This document shows, piece by piece, positions 1 through 63,270 of a stretch of 64,000 nucleotides of DNA. Made by a program: the position numbers and the translations under genes. The notes under the pieces are model-generated. The model saw only the letters and a list, made by a program, of their open reading frames with translations, made no database searches and had not been told where the DNA came from. Location of the stretch: positions 418 to 64,417 of the forward strand of contig JAQVTI010000002.1 in assembly GCA_028700115.1 (NCBI GenBank), given 5' to 3'. The first letter of the stretch is position 1. Each line of letters opens with the position of its first letter. Source of the stretch: Candidatus Iainarchaeum sp. (GTDB lineage: Archaea > Iainarchaeota > Iainarchaeia > Iainarchaeales > CSSED10-239).

Positions 1-62
1 AATTTTTGCTAAAGCTTTTTGAAAGTAAGGCTTATTTCTAATATTTTTTAAAAGATGATTTG

Positions 63-431
63 ATGAAACTTGAAAAAAATGTAATTTATTTTACTGGTTA
101 TATTGAAATAAATGAACTTGTGTGTAATTTTTTAAAAGAACTTGATGATTTGCAAAATTTTCAAAATAATTTTATTATAATAAATCTTAAAAATAAATGT
201 GTTTGTTTAATTGAAAATTTTTCAAAAGGTTATTCTAGATTTTATAAAAAAGATAAATGTTTTTTTTATTCTAAATCTAAAGATAATCTTTCAGAAATTA
301 TCTCAAATTTACTTTTATTATATAAATTTGATATTTTTACAAAAGAACAATTTGATAGATATGTTTATTTATTTAATTTGAAATTTTCTATTTTTAATGG
401 TTTATTAAAAAAATTTGAAAAAAATGAATAA
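63..431 (+). CDS. hypothetical protein (upstream neighbour of the DGR core)
   Basis: ORF track 60-431. The TTG at 60 is followed at once by an ATG at 63. No recognisable motifs. Confidence 0.3.
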   Translation: MKLEKNVIYFTGYIEINELVCNFLKELDDLQNFQNNFIIINLKNKCVCLIENFSKGYSRFYKKDKCFFYSKSKDNLSEIISNLLLLYKFDIFTKEQFDRYVYLFNLKFSIFNGLLKKFEKNE

Positions 432-433
432 AT

Positions 434-766
434 ATGTTATCTGATTTAAAACTTTATAATGAAACTTATAATCTCATATTATGGTTATATCCTATTTTTA
501 AAAAATATCCTAAATCAGATAAATATAGTCTTGGTAAAAAACAAAAAGATATTTTATTAGAGGTTATGTCTGATATTATATTATTTAGTAAAAATAATAA
601 TTTAGATTATCTTAAAAAAATTGATTTAAATTTAGAACTTTTAAGAATTTCTTTTAGGCTTTCTAAAGATTTGAAAATAATAAATTTTAATAAATATGAA
701 ATTATTTCCAAAAAAATAACTTCATTAGGTTCTTTAGTTGGTGGCTTGATTAAGAAATATTTATAA
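434..766 (+). CDS. avd: Avd-like accessory variability determinant (four-helix-bundle / 23S rRNA-intervening-sequence protein family)
   Basis: 110 aa and basic. The pattern LYPIFKKYPKSDKYSLG ... LRISFRLSKD ... LGSLVGGLIKKY resembles bAvd and PF05635-type proteins. It lies directly upstream of the TR and RT. Confidence 0.75.
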   Translation: MLSDLKLYNETYNLILWLYPIFKKYPKSDKYSLGKKQKDILLEVMSDIILFSKNNNLDYLKKIDLNLELLRISFRLSKDLKIINFNKYEIISKKITSLGSLVGGLIKKYL

Positions 767-819
767 ATTGTTTATAGTATATACATTTGTCTTAAAAGAC
801 AAAGGTAGTATACAGTAAA

Positions 820-954
820 TTTCGTGCCTTTCTTGTGGGTGGTAATTGGAACAATGGTTCAAATGCCGGAGTTCTATCTCGGAATTTGAACAATAGTCCT
901 TCGAACCGGAACTATAACATCGGTTTCCGGTGTGTAGTAGTTTTTTCCTTTTAG
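820..954 (+). repeat. DGR template repeat (TR), a non-coding copy of a C-type-lectin-fold variable region
   Basis: GC-rich island in AT-rich DNA. The frame starting at 820 reads FRAFLVGGNWNNGSNAGVLSRNLNNSPSNRNYNIGFRCVVVFSF* with ten AAY Asn codons. It has no start codon, and stop codons lie just upstream. Confidence 0.75.
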
Positions 955-1152
955 GTTAAATTATGAGTAATTATATTTAAGGATATAATTAGTATTTTTA
1001 AAAAACTACATCTGTATAAACCTGATTTGTGTTTTATTTTTAAAACACCTTTTGGAAATACCAAGAGTTTAAGTCAAAAAATTTTTTTAAAATTATAATT
1101 TTTAGTAGTTTTTGATAAAATGAAATTAATTATAATTTTCTTTTGATTTTTT

Positions 1153-2214
1153 ATGAAGTCATATAATAATTTGTGGTCTGAATTTATTTCTTTTAGAAAT
1201 TTATTTCTTGCTTTTAAAAAAGCAAGAAAAGTAAAACCTAATTCTAAACAAGTTTTAGATTTTTCTTTTAATTTAGAAAAAAATTTATTTTCTCTTCAAA
1301 AAGAATTAATTGAAAATAAATATTCTGTAAGTGCTTATAATGTTTTTACTATTTTTGAACCTAAAGAAAGGATAATTAAATCTTTGCCTTTTAAGGATAG
1401 AGTTGTTCAACATGCTTTAATAAATATTATTGAACCAATTTTTGAAAAATCTTTTATTTATGATTCTTTTGCTTGTAGAAAAAATAAAGGTATTCATTTT
1501 GGATTAAATCGATTAAAAAAAGTAATTCAAAATAAATCTTGTCTAAAATATTTTTTAAAAGCAGATATTAAAAAATATTTTTTTTCAATAGATCATTCTA
1601 TTTTAAAAGAAATTATTTTTAAAAAAATCAAAGATAAATCTCTTCAAAATTTAATATCCATAGTTATAGATAGTGATTGTTCTAATTTATCTATAAATAA
1701 AGGTGTGCCTATTGGTAATTTAACTTCTCAGTTGTTTGCAAATATTTATCTTAATGAATTTGATCAATATATAAAACACAATTTATTTGTTTCTAAATAT
1801 TTTAGATATGTAGATGATTTTTTAATATTTTCTAATTCTAAAAAAGACTTAAATAAAATTTTATATTGCTGTCGTGTTTTTTTAAAAAAAGAATTAAAAT
1901 TAAAAATTCCTTTTAAGAAAGCAAATATTTATTTAACTAATAATGGAGTTGATTTTATTGGTTATGTTATTTATCCAAATTTTATTAAAGTTAGAACTAA
2001 AAGTTTAAAAAGATTTTATAAGGTTTCTAAAAAAAATATTTATTTATATGATATTGACTATATTTCTAAAGTTCAACTTGAGTCTTCTATTTGTTCTTTT
2101 TTAGGTTTTTTTAAATTTTCTAGTTCTTATAATGCTGTAATAAATATTTTTAATAATAATATTATATTTTATAATTATTTTTATTTATTTAATAAAATTT
2201 ATTTTAGTTTTTAA
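1153..2214 (+). CDS. DGR-type reverse transcriptase
   Basis: RT motifs KDRVVQHAL, LKADIKKYFFSIDH, GVPIGNLTSQLFANIYL (DGR signature [ILV]GxxxSQ), catalytic YVDD (1806-1817) and thumb FIGYVI. Confidence 0.85.
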   Translation: MKSYNNLWSEFISFRNLFLAFKKARKVKPNSKQVLDFSFNLEKNLFSLQKELIENKYSVSAYNVFTIFEPKERIIKSLPFKDRVVQHALINIIEPIFEKSFIYDSFACRKNKGIHFGLNRLKKVIQNKSCLKYFLKADIKKYFFSIDHSILKEIIFKKIKDKSLQNLISIVIDSDCSNLSINKGVPIGNLTSQLFANIYLNEFDQYIKHNLFVSKYFRYVDDFLIFSNSKKDLNKILYCCRVFLKKELKLKIPFKKANIYLTNNGVDFIGYVIYPNFIKVRTKSLKRFYKVSKKNIYLYDIDYISKVQLESSICSFLGFFKFSSSYNAVINIFNNNIIFYNYFYLFNKIYFSF

Positions 2215-2731
2215 GATAAGAAGTTGTCATTTTCTCAATAATCTTGTTAATTTCTTTTTTTCCTCTTTCTATTTTATAAAAAGAAAGTGCATTTTCTTTA
2301 TTATATTTATTTTTTCTAATAACTTTAATATCTAATTCTTTAATAATTTCTTTTTTTTTTTTTTTGTCAATAATTTTATTAGATACAATATTTATAAAAT
2401 AATTATTTTCCCCTTTTTTTAAATACCAGTTTTTTGAAATTTTATTAATTTGATCTGAACAGTTTAAAGTTAATAGCATTTCAGTAAATCTATTTTTTGA
2501 TATATTAATTTTATCTATAAATTTAGAATATGTGATATATATCGCATAATTTAGGTGTATTTTGTTGTATATATGTGTGTTTGGGACAATAAATATTTCT
2601 ATTTTATGATTTTGGTTATTTTTTATGTTTTCAATTCTTTTTAAATAGTTTTCTATATTATAAATATCTATTGTACAAAATATATTTTCAATATAATATT
2701 TTTTGTTATTAATATTAAATCTTTCTCTCAT
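2204..2731 (-). CDS. hypothetical protein, convergent with the RT and overlapping its 3' end by 11 nt
   Basis: ORF track only. Lys/Asn-rich, with no motif I recognise. Confidence 0.3.
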   Translation of the reverse strand: MRERFNINNKKYYIENIFCTIDIYNIENYLKRIENIKNNQNHKIEIFIVPNTHIYNKIHLNYAIYITYSKFIDKINISKNRFTEMLLTLNCSDQINKISKNWYLKKGENNYFINIVSNKIIDKKKKKEIIKELDIKVIRKNKYNKENALSFYKIERGKKEINKIIEKMTTSYLKN

Positions 2732-2780
2732 AATAAAATAATATGATCGTAACTGTTTTAAAATTTATAGGTGAACTAAC

Positions 2781-3176
2781 ATGGTTGAATGGAGACAAAT
2801 TTCTAAAAGAAAAAAAACTGGTGGAATCAATAATGCAGTAAATGCAAAAACAAAGTCTTTAAGTAATAAAGGTGGAACTTTTGTAAAGACAACAGTAAAT
2901 GATGTTGAAAAAAGATTTCAAGAAAGAACTATTGGTGGGAATAAGAAAGTTAAACTTTCCCAAACAAATATTGCTTTAATTTCTATTGCAGGAAAATCTA
3001 AAAAGGTAAAAATTTTAGATGTTTTAGAAAATGAAGCAAATAAACATTTTGTAAGGCAAAAAGTTATTACAAAAGGGTGTATTATAAAAGTAGATATTGA
3101 TGGAAAAGAAGAAAAAGCAAAAGTTACTTCTAGACCAGGTCAATTTGGACAAGTTTCTGCTATTTTAGTTAAATAA
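2781..3176 (+). CDS. rps8e: 30S ribosomal protein S8e
   Basis: N-terminus WRQISKRKKTGG and a size typical of eS8. Confidence 0.85.
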   Translation: MVEWRQISKRKKTGGINNAVNAKTKSLSNKGGTFVKTTVNDVEKRFQERTIGGNKKVKLSQTNIALISIAGKSKKVKILDVLENEANKHFVRQKVITKGCIIKVDIDGKEEKAKVTSRPGQFGQVSAILVK

Positions 3177-3185
3177 ATTTAATTT

Positions 3186-3737
3186 ATGTTTTCTAAATTT
3201 AAACAAACTTTAAAAACAGATTTTAATAATAAAAAAAAAAGATTAGTTTCTCTTTATTTTTTATTTCTTTTTCTATTTTTCTTTATTATATTTTTTTTAT
3301 TATTTTCAAAAACTTTTATTTATAGTTATATAAATTATTTTTATGGTATTTCTTCTTTTTTCATAATCAAAAATATTTTTCTAATTAGTTCTAGTTTTGT
3401 TTTTGATAGTTTGAATAATGTTTCTATTATTTTAATTTCTTCTTTAAATTATCCTGTTTTTATTACTTTTTTATGTACTGGTATACTTGAACTTAGTTTA
3501 ATCTTTTCTGCTATAGTGTCTTCTTTTAATTTTTCTATTATAAAAAGATTAAAAGGTTTATTTTTAGCTTTATTTGTTGTTATTATTTTTAATATATTTA
3601 GAATAAGTATAACTATTTTTATTATTACAAAATTTAATTTAGGTATTGCAAATTTAATGCATGGTTTTTTATTTAGATTATTTATAATTATAATTGTTAT
3701 TGGTACATATTATTTTTGGACTAAGAAAATAAAATAA
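3186..3737 (+). CDS. exosortase/archaeosortase family protein (small form)
   Basis: Polytopic membrane protein with an ordered Cys ... Arg ... His signature: FLCTGILELS, IFNIFRISITI, LMHGFLFRLF. Confidence 0.6.
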   Translation: MFSKFKQTLKTDFNNKKKRLVSLYFLFLFLFFFIIFFLLFSKTFIYSYINYFYGISSFFIIKNIFLISSSFVFDSLNNVSIILISSLNYPVFITFLCTGILELSLIFSAIVSSFNFSIIKRLKGLFLALFVVIIFNIFRISITIFIITKFNLGIANLMHGFLFRLFIIIIVIGTYYFWTKKIK

Positions 3738-4121
3738 TTATTTATTTTCTTTAATAATTTTTTTAACTTGAGAAATAGTTGCGTATTCTAATGGATTAAT
3801 ATTATCTATAATATATTTCATTTCTTTTAAGTCTTCTTCTTTTGCAAATTTTTTTGAAAAAAGTTCTAAAGAATGTTCAAGGTGTTCTATTTTTTTTTCA
3901 ATATTATCCATTCTTTTTGTAATGTCTTTAATCTCTTGAAAGTTTAGTCCTGTACTATTATTTGTAGTTTCTGTTTTTGATGCAATTTTTTTATTTAAAA
4001 CAAGTATATTTCTTCCCAAGATTTTTTCATTATGAACTAAATATTTTATTTTTTGTCTTAATACTAAAAGACTTGATTGTAAGGCTTTAATATCTTGATA
4101 TATTCCAGATTGTTCAGGCAT
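3738..4121 (-). CDS. hypothetical coiled-coil protein
   Basis: ORF track. Heptad-like, K/E/L-rich sequence. Confidence 0.3.
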   Translation of the reverse strand: MPEQSGIYQDIKALQSSLLVLRQKIKYLVHNEKILGRNILVLNKKIASKTETTNNSTGLNFQEIKDITKRMDNIEKKIEHLEHSLELFSKKFAKEEDLKEMKYIIDNINPLEYATISQVKKIIKENK

Positions 4122-4302
4122 ATTTAATCTTTTTTATTTTTCTTATTTAATATATATTGTATATTTTCTTTTAAAGCTTTTTCTTTTTCTTTTTTTAGTT
4201 TCGCGTAATTAATTTTATTCAGTTATTAAATTAAATACCTTTATAAATACTTTCTCTCTATATATTATTACAAACCACATTTGGTTTTTGGAGGTATAAT
4301 TT

Positions 4303-4707
4303 ATGAAAAAAGTGTTTTTTATTTTTATGATTTTATTAGTTTCTTTATTTTCAGCATTTATTTTTGCAGAAGATTTTGATATTACTGATGTTTCATATTC
4401 TTATGTTACTTATGATTATCCAATATATCCAAATGTAAGTTATCAAAGAAATTATTCTCAAGCAGGTTATGATTATATAAATACATATAATTCATATGCT
4501 ACAATAAATCCATATTCTGGAACTTATTATAATTCTTATCCAGCATATAATTATTATGCTTATAATAATTATCCTGTATATACTTATTATCCTACACATA
4601 GTTCGTATATAACTCCAGTTTATTCTTCTTATACAAATTATTATCCATATAATTCTAATAATTTATCTTATTCAAATGGAAATTCTTATGTTTCTTTTAC
4701 ATGGTAG
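4303..4707 (+). CDS. secreted Tyr/Asn/Ser/Pro-rich low-complexity protein
   Basis: Signal peptide MKKVFFIFMILLVSLFSAFIFA, followed by about 110 aa dominated by Y, N, S and P. SD GGAGGT lies upstream. Confidence 0.55.
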   Translation: MKKVFFIFMILLVSLFSAFIFAEDFDITDVSYSYVTYDYPIYPNVSYQRNYSQAGYDYINTYNSYATINPYSGTYYNSYPAYNYYAYNNYPVYTYYPTHSSYITPVYSSYTNYYPYNSNNLSYSNGNSYVSFTW

Positions 4708-4757
4708 TTTTTATTTTTAAAAAATGTTTTTTTTAATTTATTAATGTGTGATTTAAA

Positions 4758-7700
4758 ATGAAGTTTAAAATTTATTTAATATTTATTATTTTAGTTTTTA
4801 TATCAAGCACACTATGTGCTTCATATATAGGTTTTGAATATACTGAGGTTAGAAGTACTAGTTATTATACTTTTTCAAATACCCAATATTCAAATTACTA
4901 TGAACCAATTGATTTAAGATTTTCTGCATATTCATCAGGTTTTAATAATTATGTTCCAGTCAGAGTAACTCCAAGAGTTTATGGGGTTCTGCCAAATGGG
5001 CAATTAAACTTTGTTTATACTCTCCCAACTTCTTCATATTTATTATATCCAAACCTTCCAATTTCATATACTTATAATAATTTATTTTATTTTGACCCAG
5101 AATATCAATTTTATGAAATAAAATTAGATATTGTAACTACAGATGGTGTATATTCAGATACAGATACATCTTATGTTTATTTTGAAGAAAATGGAACTTC
5201 AGGTAATTCTGGAAATTCTGGTAATACAAATGATCTTGAAGTTATAGATTGTTCTAAATTTTCTTTATCTGGATTTTATGATATTTATTTAGAGGAAGAT
5301 AAAGAAGATACCTATGATTTATATATTTATAATTCTGTTGATTTCCCATTAGATATTTTATCTGTTATAACAAATGATCTTTCTGAACTTGATGTTGAAG
5401 ATATAACTTATCCTTATACAATTTCTTCTTATCAAACAAGAAGTGCTCAAATTGATTTATTAGCAGATACAGTTTCAGATGATTATTCTTCTTTTATGGA
5501 TGTTTATGTGACTGCAAAATACGGAGATTTAGTTTGTAATAAAGAATTTAGAGTAAACTATACAATTGAAGATAAAGAAAATCCTTCAACTGCGGATTGT
5601 TCTGATATAGATTTTGAAAATATATCTTTTGAGATTATGGAAGATTCAAGTGATAGATTTGAAATTGATATTACAAATAATTCTTATGATTATGAATTTG
5701 AGATAGAATCAGTTTCTATAAATGATTCTGAAAATTTAGATGTAGATGTTTCATATTATCCTTCAAGAATAAATGTTGATCAAACAAGAACTTTAAAAAT
5801 AAATGTTGATTCAGAAGAAATTGATTCAAGTACAACTGAGGAAATTGAAGTTAAAGTTAAAGGGGTTATGACTAGAGACGGAAGAGAAGATAAAACTTGT
5901 AAAGTAAACCAAGATTTTAGATTTAGAATAATTGATTCTGAAAATACCTCTGGTTTTGGAGAATGTTCTGATATTAAGATTTATACTTCACAAATTTCTC
6001 AAGTAGAAAATATTTCTAAAGATTATTCTCTTCAAGATGGTTTTTATATTTATAATTCTTCAAATAAAGATTTTATTATTACAAACATAGTTTTTGATGA
6101 TAGATCTAGTGATTATGATATTTCAAAAAATCCAATGTCTTATACAGTTAATGCTTTTTCAAAAAATTCACTTAATTTCAATTTAAAGACTTATGATGTT
6201 TTTAATGATTTATATAAATCTAAGGTAAATGTATATGGTAAGTTTGAAAATGGAGTAAGTTGTTTATATTCTGATATTTCAAAAGAGTTTAATATATATA
6301 TAGGTAAAGAACAAAATCAATGTAGTTTAATTAAACCTGATAGTATAAATGTAAATGAAGGTAAAAATACTTTAAGAGTATATAATAATTCTAATCTTGA
6401 TTTTATTGTAAATGATGTTTTGAAATCTAATCTTTCTGATTTAGATATTGATGTAATTGACAATTCATTTACAATTAATAAAAATTCATATAAAGATATT
6501 GAATTTGGAGTTTTAGGTAAATCTGGTTATGCTGAGCTTTTATATAAGGGTGGATTTGAAAATGGAGTTAGTTGTTCTTATACAGATATTTCAAAGTCTA
6601 TTTTAAAAAGTAATAATTATTATTTATCTGGTGATTGTGAATTTTCTTTTGATTTTCCAAAATATTTAACTTTAAATTCTAATCAAGATATTAAATCTTT
6701 TGAAATTTTTTTTAAAAATAAAACAAATAAGTCTGGTTACATAGAATTAACTACAGATGGTGCTAATATTTCTCCTTCTTTTTTATATTTTTCAAGTTTT
6801 GAGGATTTTACAAATAATGTTTTTATTTCTGATTTTATTAATTCTACTATTATTAATTATAATATTAAATTAAGTGATTGCCCTAAAGTGAATTATTCTA
6901 CTTTTTTAAAAAAAGAAATAATTTTAGATAATAGTTTAGAGTTATTGTCTTTTTCAAATGAAATTAGTTCTACAAGTAATCAAATAGATACATCTGTTGT
7001 TTTAAGAAATAATTCTGATTTTTCAAAAACTTTTGTTGTAGCCCTTTCTGGTTTTCCTTCTAGTTTGTCTTATTTAGTTTCTGATAATCTTAATTTTTCT
7101 AATAGTAATAATGTTTTTACAATTGCCCCACATCAAGAAAAGATTTTATATTTTAGAATAAATTCAAGTATTTTAACAAATAATTCTTTTAATGGATTTT
7201 TTGAATTTTTTATAGATGATTCTTTAGTTTTGCAAAAGCCTTTAAAAATAACATTAATTTCAAATCATGTTGTTGAATTTTTAATGTCTGTTGATGTTTT
7301 AGATTCTTCTAATAGTTTTTCTAAGTTTATTTCTATAGATGTTGTTAATAATTCTTTAAATGATATTAATTCTGTAATTGTATTTAATAATCTTAAAGAA
7401 AATATGGATGTTTTAGGAGATGATTTGAATTTTTTTATTTTGAAAAATTCAAATATTATTAAACAATATGAAATTAAAAGTAGTAGTTTTTTTCCAAAGG
7501 ATTATAATTTAGATGTTATGTTATATGATTTTGATAAAAATATACCTTTAGCATCTACAAATGTTGTTTTTAATAGAAAAGGTAGTTTATTTAATACAGG
7601 TTTTTTTTCTTTAGGCGTTTTTAATAGTATTACTTTGATTTTTTTGATAATTTTATTTTTAATAATAATTGTATATTTTATTAAAAAACATAAAAATATT

Positions 7701-7985
7701 ATGCCTATTAAAAATATTTTTTTAAAAAGAAAAAATTCTTTAATTTTGGATGATTCTAATAATTTTAAAAAGATTGTTTTAGATAAGAAAGATGTTTTAG
7801 ATAAGAAAGATGTTTTAGATAAGAAAGATGTTTTAGATAAGAAAGATGGTTTTAAGTTAGTTTATGATTCTTTTTTAATTAATAATAATTCTAATATCAA
7901 AAGAAAGTCTCTAAATATGGTTGATAATAAAAAAATGGTTTCTAAAAAGAATTTAGATAGTTTTAATTTTTCTAAAAATTTTTAG
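4758..7985 (+). CDS. large modular cell-surface protein (signal peptide, repeated beta-sandwich-like modules, C-terminal TM and Lys-rich tail)
   Basis: N-terminal signal peptide. Repeated modules of about 110 aa begin with CS(D/K/L) and end with G.FENGVSC.Y.DISK. TM segment ITLIFLIILFLIIIVYF. VLDKKD x4 in the tail. Confidence 0.55.
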   Translation: MKFKIYLIFIILVFISSTLCASYIGFEYTEVRSTSYYTFSNTQYSNYYEPIDLRFSAYSSGFNNYVPVRVTPRVYGVLPNGQLNFVYTLPTSSYLLYPNLPISYTYNNLFYFDPEYQFYEIKLDIVTTDGVYSDTDTSYVYFEENGTSGNSGNSGNTNDLEVIDCSKFSLSGFYDIYLEEDKEDTYDLYIYNSVDFPLDILSVITNDLSELDVEDITYPYTISSYQTRSAQIDLLADTVSDDYSSFMDVYVTAKYGDLVCNKEFRVNYTIEDKENPSTADCSDIDFENISFEIMEDSSDRFEIDITNNSYDYEFEIESVSINDSENLDVDVSYYPSRINVDQTRTLKINVDSEEIDSSTTEEIEVKVKGVMTRDGREDKTCKVNQDFRFRIIDSENTSGFGECSDIKIYTSQISQVENISKDYSLQDGFYIYNSSNKDFIITNIVFDDRSSDYDISKNPMSYTVNAFSKNSLNFNLKTYDVFNDLYKSKVNVYGKFENGVSCLYSDISKEFNIYIGKEQNQCSLIKPDSINVNEGKNTLRVYNNSNLDFIVNDVLKSNLSDLDIDVIDNSFTINKNSYKDIEFGVLGKSGYAELLYKGGFENGVSCSYTDISKSILKSNNYYLSGDCEFSFDFPKYLTLNSNQDIKSFEIFFKNKTNKSGYIELTTDGANISPSFLYFSSFEDFTNNVFISDFINSTIINYNIKLSDCPKVNYSTFLKKEIILDNSLELLSFSNEISSTSNQIDTSVVLRNNSDFSKTFVVALSGFPSSLSYLVSDNLNFSNSNNVFTIAPHQEKILYFRINSSILTNNSFNGFFEFFIDDSLVLQKPLKITLISNHVVEFLMSVDVLDSSNSFSKFISIDVVNNSLNDINSVIVFNNLKENMDVLGDDLNFFILKNSNIIKQYEIKSSSFFPKDYNLDVMLYDFDKNIPLASTNVVFNRKGSLFNTGFFSLGVFNSITLIFLIILFLIIIVYFIKKHKNIMPIKNIFLKRKNSLILDDSNNFKKIVLDKKDVLDKKDVLDKKDVLDKKDGFKLVYDSFLINNNSNIKRKSLNMVDNKKMVSKKNLDSFNFSKNF
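7776..7847. repeat. perfect 18-bp tandem repeat x4 (encodes VLDKKD x4)
   Basis: gttttagataagaaagat is repeated four times head to tail. Confidence 0.9.
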
Positions 7986-8387
7986 TTATTTTTATATTTT
8001 ATTAATATTCTGAGTTTTTTTAGAATGTTTTTTTAGGTTTTGAAATCTTTTGCACCTTATTTTTGCATTTAAAGCTTATTTTATTCTTTTAAGTTTTTTT
8101 TGTGCAAATTGAGTGCTTTTTAGGTTGTTTTTTGGCAATCTATTTATAAAGTTTTCTATTCAGTTAATTATTATATAAACAATATAAGCTTTGTACACTG
8201 CTAGTTAACAGGTACAATATATTAACTTTTTTAATTAAAAGTTAACATGTAAATGCAAAGCAAGATTTATGTGTTTTTTTAAAAATTTTAAAAAAGTAGA
8301 TTTATGTTTGTGCATTTTTATAAAAAATGATTTAATATATTTAAAAAAATTTAAAAATATTTTAAAAAATAATAATGTGTTTTTAAT

Positions 8388-9382: not shown

Positions 9383-10201
9383 ATGAAAACAAATGTTTTT
9401 AATTTAGAAGGAAAAGTAATTAAGGAAATTAATTTGCCAAGCTTTTTTGAAGAAAATTATAGACCTGATCTTATTAAAAGAGCAGTAATTTCAAGTCAAT
9501 CAAAAAGTTATCAACCAAAAGGTAATTCTCCTTATTCAAATAGACTAAATACTGCTGAATATAGAGGTGTAAGAAAACCAAGTAGAATGAAAAATTCTAT
9601 TAATACAGGTCATGCAAGACTTCCAAGATTAAAAAATAGAACAGTTCTTATGGCTGGAAGAGTTGCAGGGGTTTCTCAAGCATTAGGTGGACCTAGAGCG
9701 CATCCTCCAAAAGTTTCAAAAATTTTAGTTAAAAAAATAAATTCAAAGGAAAGAACAAAAGCAATTTTAAGTGCAATTTCTGCAACTGCAAGTAAGTCTA
9801 TTGTAAGTGTTAGAGGTTCTTTACTTCCTGAAACAATAAAAACTCTCCCAATTATTGTTGATTCTTCTTTAGAAGATGTTTTAAAAACAAAAGATGTTGA
9901 TTCTTTTTTAGAAAAATTAGGATTAATTGAAAATATACAAAAAGCTAAAGATGCAAAAACTTTTAGAGCAGGAAGAGGAAAAACAAGGGGTAGACGATAT
10001 AAAAGAAGAAAAAGTATTTTGTTTGTTTTAGGAGATAATAAAAATTATAAGTCCTTTTTAAATATTGAAGGTGTTGATGTAATTAATGCAAAATATCTTT
10101 CAATTAATGAACTTGCTCCTGGAACACATGCAGGAAGATTAACAATTTATACTGAAAATGCAATTGAAGAGTTAAAAAACAGATTTTCTAAGGTGAATTA
10201 A
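9383..10201 (+). CDS. rpl4: 50S ribosomal protein L4
   Basis: Operon position. RAGRGKTRGRRYKRRKS motif. Confidence 0.9.
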   Translation: MKTNVFNLEGKVIKEINLPSFFEENYRPDLIKRAVISSQSKSYQPKGNSPYSNRLNTAEYRGVRKPSRMKNSINTGHARLPRLKNRTVLMAGRVAGVSQALGGPRAHPPKVSKILVKKINSKERTKAILSAISATASKSIVSVRGSLLPETIKTLPIIVDSSLEDVLKTKDVDSFLEKLGLIENIQKAKDAKTFRAGRGKTRGRRYKRRKSILFVLGDNKNYKSFLNIEGVDVINAKYLSINELAPGTHAGRLTIYTENAIEELKNRFSKVN

Positions 10202-12087: not shown

Positions 12088-13083
12088 GTGAAGGAAAATA
12101 TTTTTGTAAAAGATAAATTAAAAAAGATTGCAATTGCAAACTATCTTAAAAAAAAACTAAAAAGTGCAGGATTTATAGATGTTGAAGTTGTTAAAACTTC
12201 TTTTAATACAAGAATTGTAATTTATTCTTTAAAGCCTGGTTTTATTATTGGTAAAAAAGGTGCAAATATCAGAGAACTTACTAATGATTTAGAAAATAAG
12301 TTTGGATATTCAAAAGTTCATATAGAAATTGGAGAAATTCCAAATAAAAATTTAGATGCAAAAGTAATAATAGAAAATATTGAAGCAAATATTTCTAAGG
12401 GAATTTCTTGGAAAAGCGTTGTATATTCTGCATTAAGACAAATTAAAAATGCTGGTGCAATTGGTGCTGAAATTGTTGCAAAAGGAAACACTGCGGGAAA
12501 AGGTCAAAGAAAAAGAAAATCTAGATTCTTTTTTGGATATATGAAAAAAGCAGGAGATCAAAAAGATCTTGTAAGTTTTGAGAAAAAAACTACTTTTCCT
12601 GGTCTTGGAACAATTGGTATAAGACTTAGAATTGTAAAACCAGATATTATGTTTAGTGATAAAGTAGATGTTTCTGAACTTTGTAGAGATTTTAAAATAA
12701 AAATGGAAGAAGAAATTTTAGAAAAATCTAAAGAAAAAATTGATAATGTAGATAAAAGTTCAAAAGATATTAAAGAAAAAGATATTAAAGAAAAAGATAT
12801 TAAAGAAAAAGATATTAAAGAAAAAGATATTAAAGAAAAAGATATTAAAGAAAAAGATATTAAAGAAAAAGATATTAAAGAAAAAGATATTAAAGAAATT
12901 TCTAATGATAAAAAAAGTTTATCTAAAAAGAAAGTTTCTAAAGAAAATAGTTCTTTAAAAAAAGATATTTCTAAAAAAGTAACTTCAAAAGTAAAAGATG
13001 TTTTAAAAACAAAAGATGATAGTAAAAATTTATCTATATCTAATGATTCTAAATTAGATGATTTAATAAAAGTAGATAAATAA
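12088..13083 (+). CDS. rps3: 30S ribosomal protein S3 with a long Lys-rich C-terminal extension containing a tandem repeat
   Basis: KH-domain motif GFIIGKKGANIREL. GTG start 8 nt after GGAGG. The last ~120 aa are low complexity. Confidence 0.9.
   Translation: MKENIFVKDKLKKIAIANYLKKKLKSAGFIDVEVVKTSFNTRIVIYSLKPGFIIGKKGANIRELTNDLENKFGYSKVHIEIGEIPNKNLDAKVIIENIEANISKGISWKSVVYSALRQIKNAGAIGAEIVAKGNTAGKGQRKRKSRFFFGYMKKAGDQKDLVSFEKKTTFPGLGTIGIRLRIVKPDIMFSDKVDVSELCRDFKIKMEEEILEKSKEKIDNVDKSSKDIKEKDIKEKDIKEKDIKEKDIKEKDIKEKDIKEKDIKEKDIKEISNDKKSLSKKKVSKENSSLKKDISKKVTSKVKDVLKTKDDSKNLSISNDSKLDDLIKVDK
12766..12900. repeat. 15-bp tandem repeat (gatattaaagaaaaa), 8 perfect copies and 1 imperfect copy, inside rps3
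   Basis: Read directly from the sequence. Encodes (DIKEK)n. Confidence 0.9.
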
Positions 13084-25108: not shown

Positions 25109-25126
25109 ATGTTTTAAATTTTATTT

Positions 25127-25208
25127 GCTGGGGTTCCCGAGTGGTCAAAGGGGCAGGACTTAAGATCCTGTGCTTAGTGCTTCGCAGGTTCGAATCCTGT
25201 CCCCAGCA
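25127..25208 (+). tRNA. tRNA-Leu (anticodon TAA)
   Basis: Acceptor gctgggg/ccccagc, anticodon arm cagga-cttaaga-tcctg, long variable arm, T-loop ggttcgaatcc. Confidence 0.9.
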
Positions 25209-25256
25209 TTTTATTTAAGATGTTTTAAAAATTTTATAAAATTTAGGTGTTTTTAT

Positions 25257-34675: not shown

Positions 34676-34896
34676 ATAAAAAAGTTTGTAGAAAATGTAG
34701 AAAAATAATTGAAGAAACAGAACCTAATAATTCTGGAAAAGAAGAATATTTAAAAATTTGTCCTGTTTGTGGTTCTTCTAATTTTACTACATTTTGGAAA
34801 GGTACTGCATTGATTATAGATTTTGAGAAATCAGAAATTGGAAAAGCAATGGGAGTAGAAACTCCTGGTAAATATGCTTTAAGATTAAGTAGATAA
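34672..34896 (+). CDS. spt4: transcription elongation factor Spt4 (RpoE'')
   Basis: CRKC ... CPVCGS zinc ribbon. Position after Rpo7. Confidence 0.8.
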   Translation: MNKKVCRKCRKIIEETEPNNSGKEEYLKICPVCGSSNFTTFWKGTALIIDFEKSEIGKAMGVETPGKYALRLSR

Positions 34897-34903
34897 TTTT
34901 TAT

Positions 34904-35005
34904 TTAAAAATATAATATACTTAAAAATATAATATACTTAAAAATATAATATACTTAAAAATATAATATATTTAAAAATATAATATACTTAAAAACATAA
35001 ATATG
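34904..35005. repeat. 17-bp tandem repeat ttaaaaatataatatac x5 plus one degenerate copy (TATA-box-like units)
   Basis: Read directly: units start at 34904, 34921, 34938, 34955 and 34972, and the degenerate copy at 34989. Confidence 0.9.
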
Positions 35006-35097
35006 TTTTAAGAAAAATTTATTAAAATCTACGAAAGTAGTTTTTATAAATTTTAGTTTTTGCTCTCTCACAAAAATTAAGATTTTAGGTGAAAAAT

Positions 35098-42547: not shown

Positions 42548-42620
42548 TAGTCTGGAGGAGATTCGAACTCCTGTCATAAGATCCAGGGTCTTATATGCTT
42601 AGCCACTACACTACCAGACT
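42548..42620 (-). tRNA. tRNA-Gln (anticodon CTG), with an atypical anticodon loop CCCUGGA (C33)
   Basis: Reverse complement: agtctgg ta gtgt agtggctaa gcat a taaga ccctgga tctta tgac aggag ttcgaatc ctcct ccagact a. Paralogous to the tRNA-Gln(TTG) at 62951. Confidence 0.65.
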
Positions 42621-55203: not shown

Positions 55204-57327
55204 TTGTTAATTGTTGTTTGTGTTGCAATGGTTGTAATTATTTTAAACTGGGGAAAAATGTTTACACATGATAGTGTAAAAGTTATAGATTATGCTTCTT
55301 TTACAGAATCTGATTTAGAAGGTTATGTTTTTGTAAAAAATATATTTGAATCAACTGATGGATCAGATAGTAAATTAATTTTAGATAATAGAAATAAATT
55401 AAAAGATGCAAATATAATTGCATATAAAATATTAGATTTAGACCCTTCTAAATCTGGAATTACAGATATTTATTATGAATATGATACTCCTGTTTTATTA
55501 CAACACGGGCATTCAAAAGATCTAAATGTTATTTGTTTTCCTTCAAATGAGTTTGATATTGAGTTTTATACATCTGATGAAAAATGTTTTAAAGTAAATG
55601 TTTTTGATTCATCTCTTTCTTGTCAATCTTGTTTAAATCTCCCATATTGTGGAGATAGTTCTTGTAATGGAGATGAGACTGCAAACACATGTTATTCTGA
55701 TTGTGGAAGTTGTGGAGATGGAATTTGTACATCTGGAGAAGAAAATATGACTTCTTGTTATACAGATTGTGGAACTTGTGGAGATGGAATTTGTACATTT
55801 GGAGAAGAAAATGCTACAACTTGTTATGATGATTGTGGTGAATGTGGAAATTCTATTTTAGAAGGACCAGAGACTTGTGATTCAGATACAGAAAGTTGTA
55901 CAACTTCTGTTTCAGGAATAACTTATGTTGGAACACATACTTGTTTAGGAGATTGTTCTGCATATGGAACTTGTACTACTACTAAATCTTGTGGAGATGG
56001 AATTTGTCAAAACACAGGTGGAGATGGAGAAACTGTAAGTAATTGTGTAGTTGATTGTCATTCTTGTGGAGATGGTATTTGTAGTGATGGTTATGAAACT
56101 GAAGTTTCTTGCCCTGCAGACTGTTTACAATATACTTGTAGTCTAGGAGATACAGATAATGGTGATGGAACTTGTACTGCTTTAATAGATGCAAGTTATG
56201 ATAATAGTTTAAAATATACCACTTCTAATTTTGATTATGATGCAACTACTGGAGTAGTTAATGGTGGTACTTATGTTTCTGTAGGTTCTTATGAATTTGG
56301 AGGTGCTGCCCCTGCATTATGTGTTTTAGAAGACACTTTAATTAATGTTTTAAGAAATGATGAAGAAAAAGAAATGTTTGTTCAAGATGTTTTATTGTCT
56401 GATTATATTTTATCTTGGGACTTTAATCAAAATGAATATATATATGTTCCTGTTTTACAAAAATTTAATAATACTATTAATGAATACTATATTATTAATA
56501 ATAAATTAAAAGTTACTTCATTACATCCAATATATATTAAAGATAAAGGATTTATTTATCCAGAAGAAATTACATATAATGATTATTTATTAAATAGTAA
56601 TGGTGATTTTGAGAAAGTAAATAGTGTTAAATTTGTTGAAAATGTAGATGAAAATATTTATAATTTTGAAACAGGAAATCATTTTTATTTTGCTAATGGT
56701 TATTTAACACATAATCCAGCACCTATGTCTCCTTATTTATATTATATACATAGATCTTATTTCTTTTTTGATACTTCTTATATTTCTAGTTATGGAACTG
56801 TAAATTCTGCAGATTTTAAATTTACTGTTAGTCAATATGATGAAATTACTAGTTATAGTTTTATTTTACAAAAAACAGATAATTCAACTTATCCTCATAA
56901 TCCTTTACAAACTGGAGATTTTGATGAATCTTATTATAGTGGTAATTTAGGATCTATTTCAAATTCTAGTTTTGGTTCTCCTTCTATTGTTAGTTTAAAT
57001 TCAACAGGACTTACAGAAGTTACAAATAGTTTAGGAGATACTTTTAAATTTGTTTTAAGATCTGATTGTGATGTAGGTCATTCTTGTGATGATGAGCATA
57101 AATTAGCTTATATTTATAGATATAATTCTGCAAATCCTCCTCAATTAGAAATAACTTATTCCCCTACATCTCAAGTATACTGTGGAAATGGTGTTGTTGA
57201 GACAGGTGAAGATTGTGAATGTGGTGTGGGTGCTTTTGATATGGGTAATGTAGGGGAAAATAGTTGTGTAAATTATTCTTCTGATACTTGTATAAATTGT
57301 GTTTATACTGGTGGATTTGGTAATTAA
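55204..57327 (+). CDS. Cys-rich surface protein with an embedded Hint domain; its pilin-like class III signal peptide (from the ATG at 55153) is interrupted by an in-frame TAA at 55189-55191, so it may be a pseudogene
   Basis: The frame from 55153 reads MDYNFNKKAISP*IATVLLIVVCVAMVVIILNWG, paralogous to the N-terminus of 54604. The 2.1-kb ORF downstream is intact. Confidence 0.55.
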   Translation: MLIVVCVAMVVIILNWGKMFTHDSVKVIDYASFTESDLEGYVFVKNIFESTDGSDSKLILDNRNKLKDANIIAYKILDLDPSKSGITDIYYEYDTPVLLQHGHSKDLNVICFPSNEFDIEFYTSDEKCFKVNVFDSSLSCQSCLNLPYCGDSSCNGDETANTCYSDCGSCGDGICTSGEENMTSCYTDCGTCGDGICTFGEENATTCYDDCGECGNSILEGPETCDSDTESCTTSVSGITYVGTHTCLGDCSAYGTCTTTKSCGDGICQNTGGDGETVSNCVVDCHSCGDGICSDGYETEVSCPADCLQYTCSLGDTDNGDGTCTALIDASYDNSLKYTTSNFDYDATTGVVNGGTYVSVGSYEFGGAAPALCVLEDTLINVLRNDEEKEMFVQDVLLSDYILSWDFNQNEYIYVPVLQKFNNTINEYYIINNKLKVTSLHPIYIKDKGFIYPEEITYNDYLLNSNGDFEKVNSVKFVENVDENIYNFETGNHFYFANGYLTHNPAPMSPYLYYIHRSYFFFDTSYISSYGTVNSADFKFTVSQYDEITSYSFILQKTDNSTYPHNPLQTGDFDESYYSGNLGSISNSSFGSPSIVSLNSTGLTEVTNSLGDTFKFVLRSDCDVGHSCDDEHKLAYIYRYNSANPPQLEITYSPTSQVYCGNGVVETGEDCECGVGAFDMGNVGENSCVNYSSDTCINCVYTGGFGN
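56320..56715 (+). other. Hint (intein-like, BIL-type) autoprocessing domain, 132 aa
   Basis: Begins with Cys (ALCVLEDTLINV), has a TxxH block (VTSLHP) and ends YLTHN. It is followed by Pro, not Cys, Ser or Thr. Confidence 0.65.
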
Positions 57328-62950: not shown

Positions 62951-63023
62951 TAGTCCGGAGGAGATTCGAACTCCTGTCGCCAGGTTCAAAGCCTGAAATG
63001 CTTGGCCACTACACTACCGGACT
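62951..63023 (-). tRNA. tRNA-Gln (anticodon TTG)
   Basis: Reverse complement: agtccgg ta gtgt agtggccaa gcat t tcagg ctttgaa cctgg cgac aggag ttcgaatc ctcct ccggact a. Confidence 0.9.
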
Positions 63024-63194: not shown

Positions 63195-63270
63195 GGGAGT
63201 TTAGCTTAGTCTGGTTTTGAGCACTCGACTGATAATCGAGAGGTCGCAGGTTCGAATCCTGCAATTCCCA
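63195..63270 (+). tRNA. tRNA-Ile (anticodon GAT)
   Basis: Acceptor gggagtt/aattccc, anticodon arm ctcga-ctgataa-tcgag, T-arm gcagg-ttcgaat-cctgc. Confidence 0.9.

Follow-up and report, generated by a model that had tools for sequence, protein, structure and literature searches.

Evidence for a chromosomal diversity-generating retroelement, with one additional accessory gene, in an AT-rich DPANN-type archaeon

Introduction

Does the reverse transcriptase gene at the left edge of a 64,000-nucleotide stretch of DNA from Candidatus Iainarchaeum sp. (GCA_028700115.1, contig JAQVTI010000002.1, positions 418 to 64,417; "the window" in this report) belong to a diversity-generating retroelement (DGR), and, if so, which gene is diversified by it? 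A preliminary description, made from the letters without database searches, had taken 3 co-oriented elements, namely a gene for a small basic protein, a GC-rich non-coding island and the reverse transcriptase (RT) gene, to be the avd gene, template repeat (TR) and RT of a DGR core. We report here, with high confidence, that positions 63 to 2214 hold the helper and template half of a DGR, one located on the chromosome of an AT-rich, DPANN-type archaeon. The order of the element as a whole is very probably the target gene with its variable repeat (VR), short repeats and a hairpin, a second four-helix-bundle gene (HB), avd, TR, spacer and RT. The element is thus a complete DGR whose target end falls just off the window, with one extra conserved accessory gene.

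As the preliminary description said, DGRs are a class already known in DPANN archaea; Paul et al., in 2017, are said to have described DGRs of these archaea and of bacteria of the candidate phyla radiation (CPR). What is possibly new here is confined to the HB gene and a set of short GACGG repeats, and the rest fits the known picture of DGRs, which this element leaves unchanged. Its value lies rather in being a well-resolved chromosomal DGR of an ultra-small AT-rich archaeon, with its parts mapped to the base.

The reverse transcriptase and its relatives

The RT gene (positions 1153 to 2214, + strand) encodes an intact protein of 353 aa, as had been described, and is the only RT gene in the window; its last 11 nt overlap the convergent gene for Cgi121. 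The protein matched Pfam RVT_1 (1.3e-28). Its best match in the PDB was 8ub7_A, the RT of Bordetella phage (bRT), at 172 bits (E=2.7e-49), from an entry that Foldseek describes as a DGR ribonucleoprotein reverse transcriptase. The next matches were group II RTs at 72 bits or less (GsI-IIC, 71.7), followed by retron-type, Cas-fused and DRT enzymes. Both motifs claimed for the protein, YVDD and [ILV]GxxxSQ, were found: in the alignment to 8ub7_A, IGNLTSQ (1711 to 1731), which represents motif 4, lies opposite I181 to Q187 of bRT, and the catalytic YVDD (1807 to 1818) lies opposite YMDD, with D215/D216. Equivalents of bRT R74, I181, Q187 and D215/D216 are conserved in this alignment, the numbering of which agrees with that of the published bRT residues, and R74, I181 and Q187 have been reported to contact template and dNTP (bioRxiv 10.1101/2023.10.23.563531).

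We scanned one genome per species for relatives of the RT, found 118, and kept 80 of these as loci (handles such as L003 denote loci and contigs below). When each locus was compared with itself, TR/VR pairs with at least 75% of their mismatches at adenines were detected in about two thirds of the 80, and by this association the RT family is functionally tied to DGRs. The closest relatives come from DPANN archaea: locus L003 (60% identity), 2 loci of Candidatus Forterrea multitransposorum (CP045477.1; L004 and L006, 55%), and 2 from Iainarchaeum/ainarchaeum metagenome-assembled genomes (L005 and L007, 54%). Together with the PDB scores, these DGR-linked relatives support, at the level of sequence comparison, placement of the RT in the DGR clade.

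That the enzyme is instead a group II maturase, a retron RT or a DRT/Abi defence RT, with its DGR-like neighbours present by coincidence, is a proposition to which we give next to no credence. It could appeal to the best named NCBIfam model, which was that for a group II intron RT (group_II_RT_mat), at 143.9 bits and far under the cut-off of 300; to the lack of any DGR RT model among the NCBIfam matches; and to PADLOC, which returned generic RT and DRT matches only and was uninformative. Yet no group II, retron or DRT structure came within 100 bits of bRT, and the RT fell far below the cut-offs of the Drt2, Drt3 and retron models of NCBIfam. Also, Rfam reported no intron RNA, msr/msd or other family in positions 1 to 3000, TR and spacer included, most relatives of the RT are DGR-associated, and the RT is adjoined by an Avd equivalog and served by a TR/VR pair with adenine-only changes, as described next.

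Template repeat and variable repeat

The GC-rich non-coding island that had been noted at 820 to 954 is real. GC content is 39-41% in 100-nt windows at 801 to 950 and 12-22% in the surroundings, and is 43% for 822 to 944 versus 18% for the rest of positions 1 to 3000. Alignment of TR with VR narrowed the functional TR, which the preliminary description had equated with the island, to positions 822 to 942 (+ strand), a 121-nt segment in which 28 bases are adenines and 10 codons are AAY. The in-frame translation of this segment is RAFLVGGNWNNGSNAGVLSRNLNNSPSNRNYNIGFRCVVV. None of its codons can reach a stop through an A-to-N change, and its theoretical diversity is about 4e13 peptides.

No VR was found inside the window, either with an adenine-tolerant scan of both strands (up to 6 non-A mismatches per 60 nt) or with a general repeat search. 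An exact-protein look-up of the RT led to 2 other contigs that carry it, of 8.5 kb and 2.6 kb. The first of these, L001 (GCA_028691725.1, 8,501 bp), is 100% identical to window positions 1 to 8243 and holds 258 nt more on the left. We observed that L001 4 to 123, which corresponds to 136 to 254 nt upstream of window base 1, is the cognate VR, and the target gene accordingly lies off the window, immediately upstream of its left edge. All 10 substitutions between TR and VR fall on TR adenines (845, 850, 851, 884, 892, 895, 904, 905, 914 and 917); with 28 adenines among 121 bases, the probability that 10 random substitutions would do so is about 4e-7. A partner sequence that differs from TR almost only at TR adenines, the diagnostic relationship of a DGR, is therefore present, and its 10 adenine substitutions show past DGR activity. 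TR and VR also share a 24-nt, adenine-poor 3' end, ATCGGTTTCCGGTGTGTAGTAGTT, beyond which they diverge, an arrangement that in sequence appears IMH/IMH*-like.

Avd and a second four-helix-bundle protein

The product of positions 434 to 766 (+ strand), a protein of 110 aa with a pI of 9.65, is the accessory variability determinant, Avd, as the preliminary description had it. It exceeded the curated cut-offs of both Pfam bAvd (69.8 bits, cut-off 40) and the NCBIfam equivalog DivGenRetAVD (86.6 bits, cut-off 80), which places an Avd beside the TR and RT of this locus. The only PDB sequences matched by a profile built from 6 Avd orthologues were 4dwl (Bordetella phage Avd) and 8ub7_B; the profile was needed for these matches, since single-sequence phmmer searches of the PDB with Avd, and likewise with HB, gave noise only.

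The core order of Avd, TR and RT was thus correctly read, but the cassette starts at 63 and not at 434, since HB (positions 63 to 431, + strand), a gene that had gone unnoticed, belongs to it. HB encodes 122 aa, and its stop codon lies 2 nt ahead of the avd start. An AF2 model of the protein has 4 helices (pLDDT 83), and with Foldseek its top matches were 2gsc and 2rld, of the S23p (23S rRNA intervening-sequence protein) family, followed by the Avd structures 4dwl and 8ub7_B, with TM values of 0.7-0.84. In profile searches HB stayed below the cut-offs for PF05635 (25.1 bits, cut-off 33.8) and TIGR02436 (21.8 bits, cut-off 24) and gave no match to bAvd (PF22296 / NF033474). Among 34 relatives of HB, 25 match PF05635 and 6 match bAvd. 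As judged from the modelled fold, HB would be a four-helix bundle of the Avd/S23p superfamily, and we do not file it as an Avd.

Avd has been described as structurally similar to the S23p family (bioRxiv 10.1101/2023.10.23.563531). HB shares the fold of that family (PF05635; 2gsc, 2rld) with TM values of 0.75-0.89, and differs from it in scoring under the Pfam and TIGR02436 cut-offs and in lying within a DGR operon rather than an rRNA intervening sequence. The HB family is small, as an exhaustive profile search retrieved 49 cluster representatives out of 1.84 billion. The gene occupies the same slot in L003, L004, L006 and L083, the last of these from a sister species in which HB overlaps avd by 4 nt, so that 5 cassettes are known with the window included. 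Wu et al. 2018 (PMC5758913) recorded 2 avd genes in only 1 DGR out of 372; in the present case, by contrast, a distinct second gene of the Avd superfamily is a fixed component throughout a clade. We take HB to be, most likely, a lineage-specific second Avd-like subunit, or a partner of the complex.

HB-like open reading frames were also seen in 2 CPR-type bacterial DGR loci, at L068 7084 to 7452 (102.7 bits to the HB profile) and L048 4003 to 4374 (61.4 bits), in each case a few kb from the avd gene of the locus itself. The clade of the window may therefore not be the only one with a second bundle protein close to its DGRs.

RNA elements of the TR flanks and spacer

For phage BPP-1, a template:primer duplex, a cPRT-stop duplex and an Avd-binding stem-loop have been described, and such elements have been predicted in 207 other DGRs (bioRxiv 10.1101/2023.10.23.563531). 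We find putative counterparts of all three around the TR of the window. The spacer (Sp), a non-coding RNA segment of 210 nt between TR and RT (positions 943 to 1152; all elements described here are on the + strand), contains 2 adjoining strands that are complementary to sequences outside it. S1 (AAAAAACTAC, 1000 to 1009) can pair with the TR 3' end GTAGTTTTTT (937 to 946), and S2 (1012 to 1022) with an upstream segment, U (GGTAGTATACAG, 804 to 815); A1010 and T1011 are left unpaired between them. Directly upstream of U is a hairpin, TTTGTCTT-AA-AAGACAAA (786 to 803), which was read from the sequence and from alignment A6 and whose structure appears to be kept in relatives with different sequence. 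Within the spacer, folding predicts a small hairpin at 947 to 955, a 10-bp stem with a tetraloop at 968 to 991, which is the candidate Avd-binding stem-loop, and 2 stem-loops at 1029 to 1048 and 1049 to 1067 (z=-3.7 for the fold of 1023 to 1075). The spacer block AAAAACTACATC is conserved across 6 lineages (alignments A6 and A8), and the motif ACTACATC is invariant in all 6.

The U:S2 duplex has a calculated energy of -11.2 kcal/mol (p=0.0075 against shuffles), and a duplex of this kind can form in 6 of 6 loci although the sequences differ (p 0.0005-0.009). In the alignment, 85.7% of its cells are paired versus 42-57% when the partner is slid, and 5 of its pairs show compensatory changes on both sides. 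The S1:TR duplex, of 10 bp, has a calculated energy of -8.4 kcal/mol (p=0.03), with p values of 0.007-0.06 in 5 of 6 loci; as consensus helix 2 it is 92.6% paired and mostly invariant. RNAalifold recovered both helices unguided. The spacer can therefore form both the template:primer and the cPRT-stop duplexes expected of a DGR. By analogy, U:S2 would be the counterpart of the "cPRT stop" duplex that avd and Sp form in the RNA of the Bordetella phage DGR, and the candidate cis-priming nucleotide likely lies at or beside 1009-1010, as compared with Sp A56 of phage BPP-1. The priming and stop architecture of the phage RNA thus appears recognizable, and covarying, in a small archaeal clade.

The target gene and its 3' flank

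Of the target gene of the window organism, the last 41 codons are known, and these are frameshifted as assembled. Its nature is better seen in Forterrea, where the VR of L004 and L006 ends a protein of 453-457 aa. These proteins matched an archaellin/type-IV-pilin N-terminal domain (TIGR02537, 24.1 bits, cut-off 20) and the FGE-sulfatase family PF03781 (29.5 and 37.1 bits, cut-off 23.3). The FGE-sulfatase domain has the C-type-lectin-like fold that is typical of DGR targets. Both the repaired VR peptide of the window species and a 90-aa C-terminal fragment from the sister species aligned to the C-termini of the Forterrea targets. A profile search with the targets of the relatives yielded 939 homologues, a large family of proteins of about 450 aa, some of which are labelled "flagellin-like" or "SUMF1/EgtB/PvdO family" in their sources. 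The C-terminal signature of the target of the window organism was absent from the 10 partial or short matches inspected among these 939, exact-pattern scans of contigs (2 metagenomic, 1 viral) gave no match to this target gene, and a protein search with the repaired VR peptide gave no candidates. Two downstream genes, for an archaeosortase homologue and a 1075-aa surface protein, were considered as DGR targets and set aside, as neither contains VR-like sequence.

A type-IV-pilin-like protein with a C-type-lectin/FGE-sulfatase variable domain in Forterrea suggests that the likely role of the element is to vary a ligand-binding tip at the cell surface, plausibly for attachment to hosts or partners. 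If the diversified protein is, as seems probable, a pilin-like adhesin, the element is relevant to the ways in which attachment might be varied by host-dependent DPANN cells. Targets in the archaeal clade of DGRs are usually without a recognizable transmembrane or other domain (Roux et al. 2021, PMC8144416); the targets of the relatives of the window lineage differ in carrying an archaellin/pilin N-terminal domain that scores above cut-off.

Between target and HB lie 2 further elements. Short tandem repeats of the form GACGG(N3-4), in 4 to 5 copies, occupy L001 163 to 205, about 54-96 nt to the left of window base 1. The same repeats occur at L004 8556 to 8595 and L006 8583 to 8622; they lie about 40 nt downstream of the VR, have a conserved 5' flank, TGTATTT(T/A)GACGGG, and stand out as GC-rich, since the genomes have 21-25% GC. 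Across the 1.07 Mb of loci that were fetched, the pattern was present at these 3 places only, and is thus confined to the window species and Forterrea. The same place is taken by C/T-rich short repeats in the sister species (L083) and in L003, and by G-rich GGTAGGC repeats in L008. G-rich repeats after the VR were considered as a general trait of DGRs, and this was rejected, as most other loci have a classical hairpin directly after the VR. The second element, just upstream of HB, is the hairpin CTTGCC-GTAA-GGCAAG at L001 240 to 255, followed by TCAAATTTTT. It lies about 110 nt from the VR, is near-identical in L003 (72 to 88), and is replaced in the sister species by a different GC-rich hairpin (L083 370 to 391). 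It may represent the target-site hairpin of the DGR, shifted by about 110 nt, or else a terminator of the target gene.

We think it improbable that HB, the GACGG repeats and this hairpin form a module undescribed for DGRs. In one version of that proposal, a second Avd-like oligomer would mark either the operon RNA at its 5' end or the 3' flank of the target, and would thereby direct or regulate cDNA integration. If true, the module would represent protein-assisted target recognition added to the RT-Avd-RNA machine in this archaeal lineage. A conserved second gene of the Avd superfamily and short repeats within one cassette are, at any rate, biochemically cheap to test.

Chromosomal setting and sister species

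Downstream of the RT, the window continues with genes for Cgi121, ribosomal protein S8e and the archaeosortase homologue. The preliminary description was right about the proximity of S8e and the archaeosortase gene, and had considered that this location stands out. We reached a sister species, whose HB is only 47-49% identical, through the upstream gene, and found the same order there (L083 to L088): target, HB, avd, TR, RT, Cgi121 (- strand), S8e and archaeosortase homologue, and later L3 and L4. Because the sister species has the same neighbours, the site beside ribosomal-protein genes is inherited and not peculiar to the window. We regard it as an ordinary chromosomal DGR site; the Forterrea relatives lie in other contexts.

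These observations also bear on the view that the DGR is borne by an integrated virus or other mobile element and diversifies a viral receptor-binding protein. Many DGRs are phage-borne, the RT gene gave weak nucleotide matches to RTs of crAss-like phages, the sequence upstream of the VR was not recovered, and Forterrea has the cassette twice, in contexts that differ, with a transposase-like open reading frame next to one copy. Against this, the downstream flank consists of core genes (Cgi121, S8e) in a synteny that is identical in a species as distant as the HB identity indicates; the targets known from relatives have the signal domains of archaeal pilins in place of tail-fibre features; and the TR/VR end motif was without a match in the viral contig collection. 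Viral carriage is, on balance, very unlikely, and we retain the reading of a cellular, chromosomal element.

In the sister lineage, VRs from 4 samples differ from one another and from the TR at 16-18 TR-adenine sites versus 1-3 other sites, and this element is thus active in nature. All 6 of the sister contigs shown (L083 to L088) end at or near the VR. More generally, every contig examined from both species (L001, L002, L089 and L083 to L088), one of them of 141 kb, ends in the VR or within a few hundred bases of it, as would be expected if assemblies break at a target gene that is hypervariable or repeated.

The relatives reveal, in addition, a route of decay. In L007 (5540 to 5960) and L005 (about 9736 to 10001), the diversified VR is joined directly to the 3' flank of TR, that is, to spacer and RT, and the repeats, HB, avd and TR are all lost. 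L005 has 2 occurrences of the spacer motif, and the longest RT open reading frame found there is only 71 aa. This looks like deletion by homologous recombination between VR and TR.

Comparison with known systems

A close counterpart is the DGR of Bordetella phage BPP-1 (mtd-avd-TR-brt; 8ub7, 4dwl). The 2 elements share the order of target (VR), avd, TR, spacer and RT, the same Avd family and adenine-specific TR/VR differences; bRT is the closest solved RT (172 bits), with R74, I181, Q187 and YxDD kept, and in both RNAs the spacer strands that pair with the TR 3' end and with the segment upstream of TR adjoin each other and are followed by stem-loops. They differ in several respects. The BPP-1 element is phage-borne whereas that of the window is cellular and archaeal; the upstream pairing segment is located in the last avd codons of BPP-1 and in the avd-TR intergenic DNA here; the window element has a second four-helix-bundle gene upstream of avd; the hairpin directly after the VR in BPP-1 is represented here by a GNRA-loop hairpin about 110 nt downstream, behind the GACGG repeats; and the tail fibre that serves as target in the phage is replaced by a probably pilin-like protein.

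Resemblance to the DGRs of DPANN archaea and CPR bacteria (Paul et al. 2015, PMC4372165; PMC5758913; PMC8144416) extends to small AT-rich genomes, a chromosomal element, a single nearby C-terminal VR in a C-type-lectin-type domain, and an avd-TR-RT core that corresponds to architecture B of Wu et al. 2018 (PMC5758913). A complete parallel is Forterrea (L004 and L006), in which the whole cassette of target, GACGG repeats, HB, avd, TR, spacer and RT is present, with 57-58% identity for Avd and about 31% for HB in addition to the RT identity given above, and with an identical spacer motif, AAAAACTACATCTG; it differs in having 2 copies and other genomic contexts. The Forterrea genome paper makes no mention of a retroelement or reverse transcriptase.

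A proposed mechanism and the points against it

By analogy with the phage system, an RNA spanning about 786 to 1070 would be made, in which S2 would pair with U and S1 with the TR 3' end. The complementarity of both strands, with conservation or covariation, was observed here. The pairing would place spacer nucleotide 1009-1010, or one close by, as primer for cDNA synthesis by an RT-Avd complex, and the RT would copy TR faithfully save at adenines. The mutagenized cDNA would then replace VR by way of the shared GC-rich 3' homology, ATCGGTTTCCGGTGTGTAGTAGTT, so that about 15 codons, most of them AAY, would be rewritten at the C-terminal end of a surface protein. Adenine-specific TR/VR differences at this locus and between-sample turnover of VRs in the sister species were both observed.

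Several points weigh against parts of this account. In the RNA, the S1:TR duplex failed the shuffle test in L008 (p=0.47), and covariation says little about this duplex because it is mostly invariant. A direct comparison of HB with the Avd profile by hhalign returned a probability of 5%, which does not demonstrate homology, and it is the position of HB alone that suggests its role. The pilin-like character of the target is carried over from relatives with RT identities of 54-60%, and is on that sequence evidence probable. Lastly, the VR has a 1-nt deletion, at TR G881, in the only assembly that reaches it; as assembled, this creates a premature TGA and cuts the target about 20 codons early, and we infer, rather than observe, activity in the strain of the window itself. 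The deletion is either a true frameshift or, as it sits within 62 nt of the contig tip, possibly an assembly error.

The last of these points raises the matter of whether the locus is a DGR by descent that is now inactive in the window strain, with a frameshifted VR and a cassette in decay. We consider this unlikely, while giving it more weight than the other alternatives. The deletion relative to TR and its premature stop speak for a relic, and decay does occur in relatives, as the fused VR and TR flanks of L005 and L007 and the short RT reading frame of L005 demonstrate. However, the window has an intact HB, avd, TR, spacer and RT, the last with its catalytic YVDD, and a strain with 97.6% identity overall shows 99% identity in the Avd-RT intergenic region. 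In the sister species the element can be seen to be active, the adenine substitutions in the VR attest to past activity here, and the deletion occupies the very tip of a contig built from short reads, a place prone to errors. We favor the reading of a DGR with a complete helper and template half.

Other features of the window

Convergent with the RT gene is that for the KEOPS subunit Cgi121 (2204 to 2731, - strand; NCBIfam 44.7 bits, cut-off 40). The archaeosortase homologue is a membrane protein of 183 aa (3186 to 3737, + strand; TIGR04178, 33.5 bits, cut-off 23), and the 1075-aa protein (4758 to 7985, + strand), with KKDVLD repeats near its C-terminus, had no family match. Genes for tRNA-Leu (25126 to 25209) and tRNA-Ile (63195 to 63270) were found, as were 2 for tRNA-Gln on the - strand (anticodon CTG, 42548 to 42620; anticodon TTG, 62951 to 63023), which explain a direct repeat of 84% identity. 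About ten 15-nt tandem repeats, GAAAAAGATATTAAA, at 12701 to 12925 lie inside the open reading frame 12088 to 13083 and encode KDIKE-type repeats, and six AT-rich 17-nt tandem repeats, TACTTAAAAATATAATA, lie at 34884 to 35019. Five 66-nt repeats at 55668 to 56087 encode cysteine-rich modules (...CGxCGDGIC...), probably of a repetitive surface protein.

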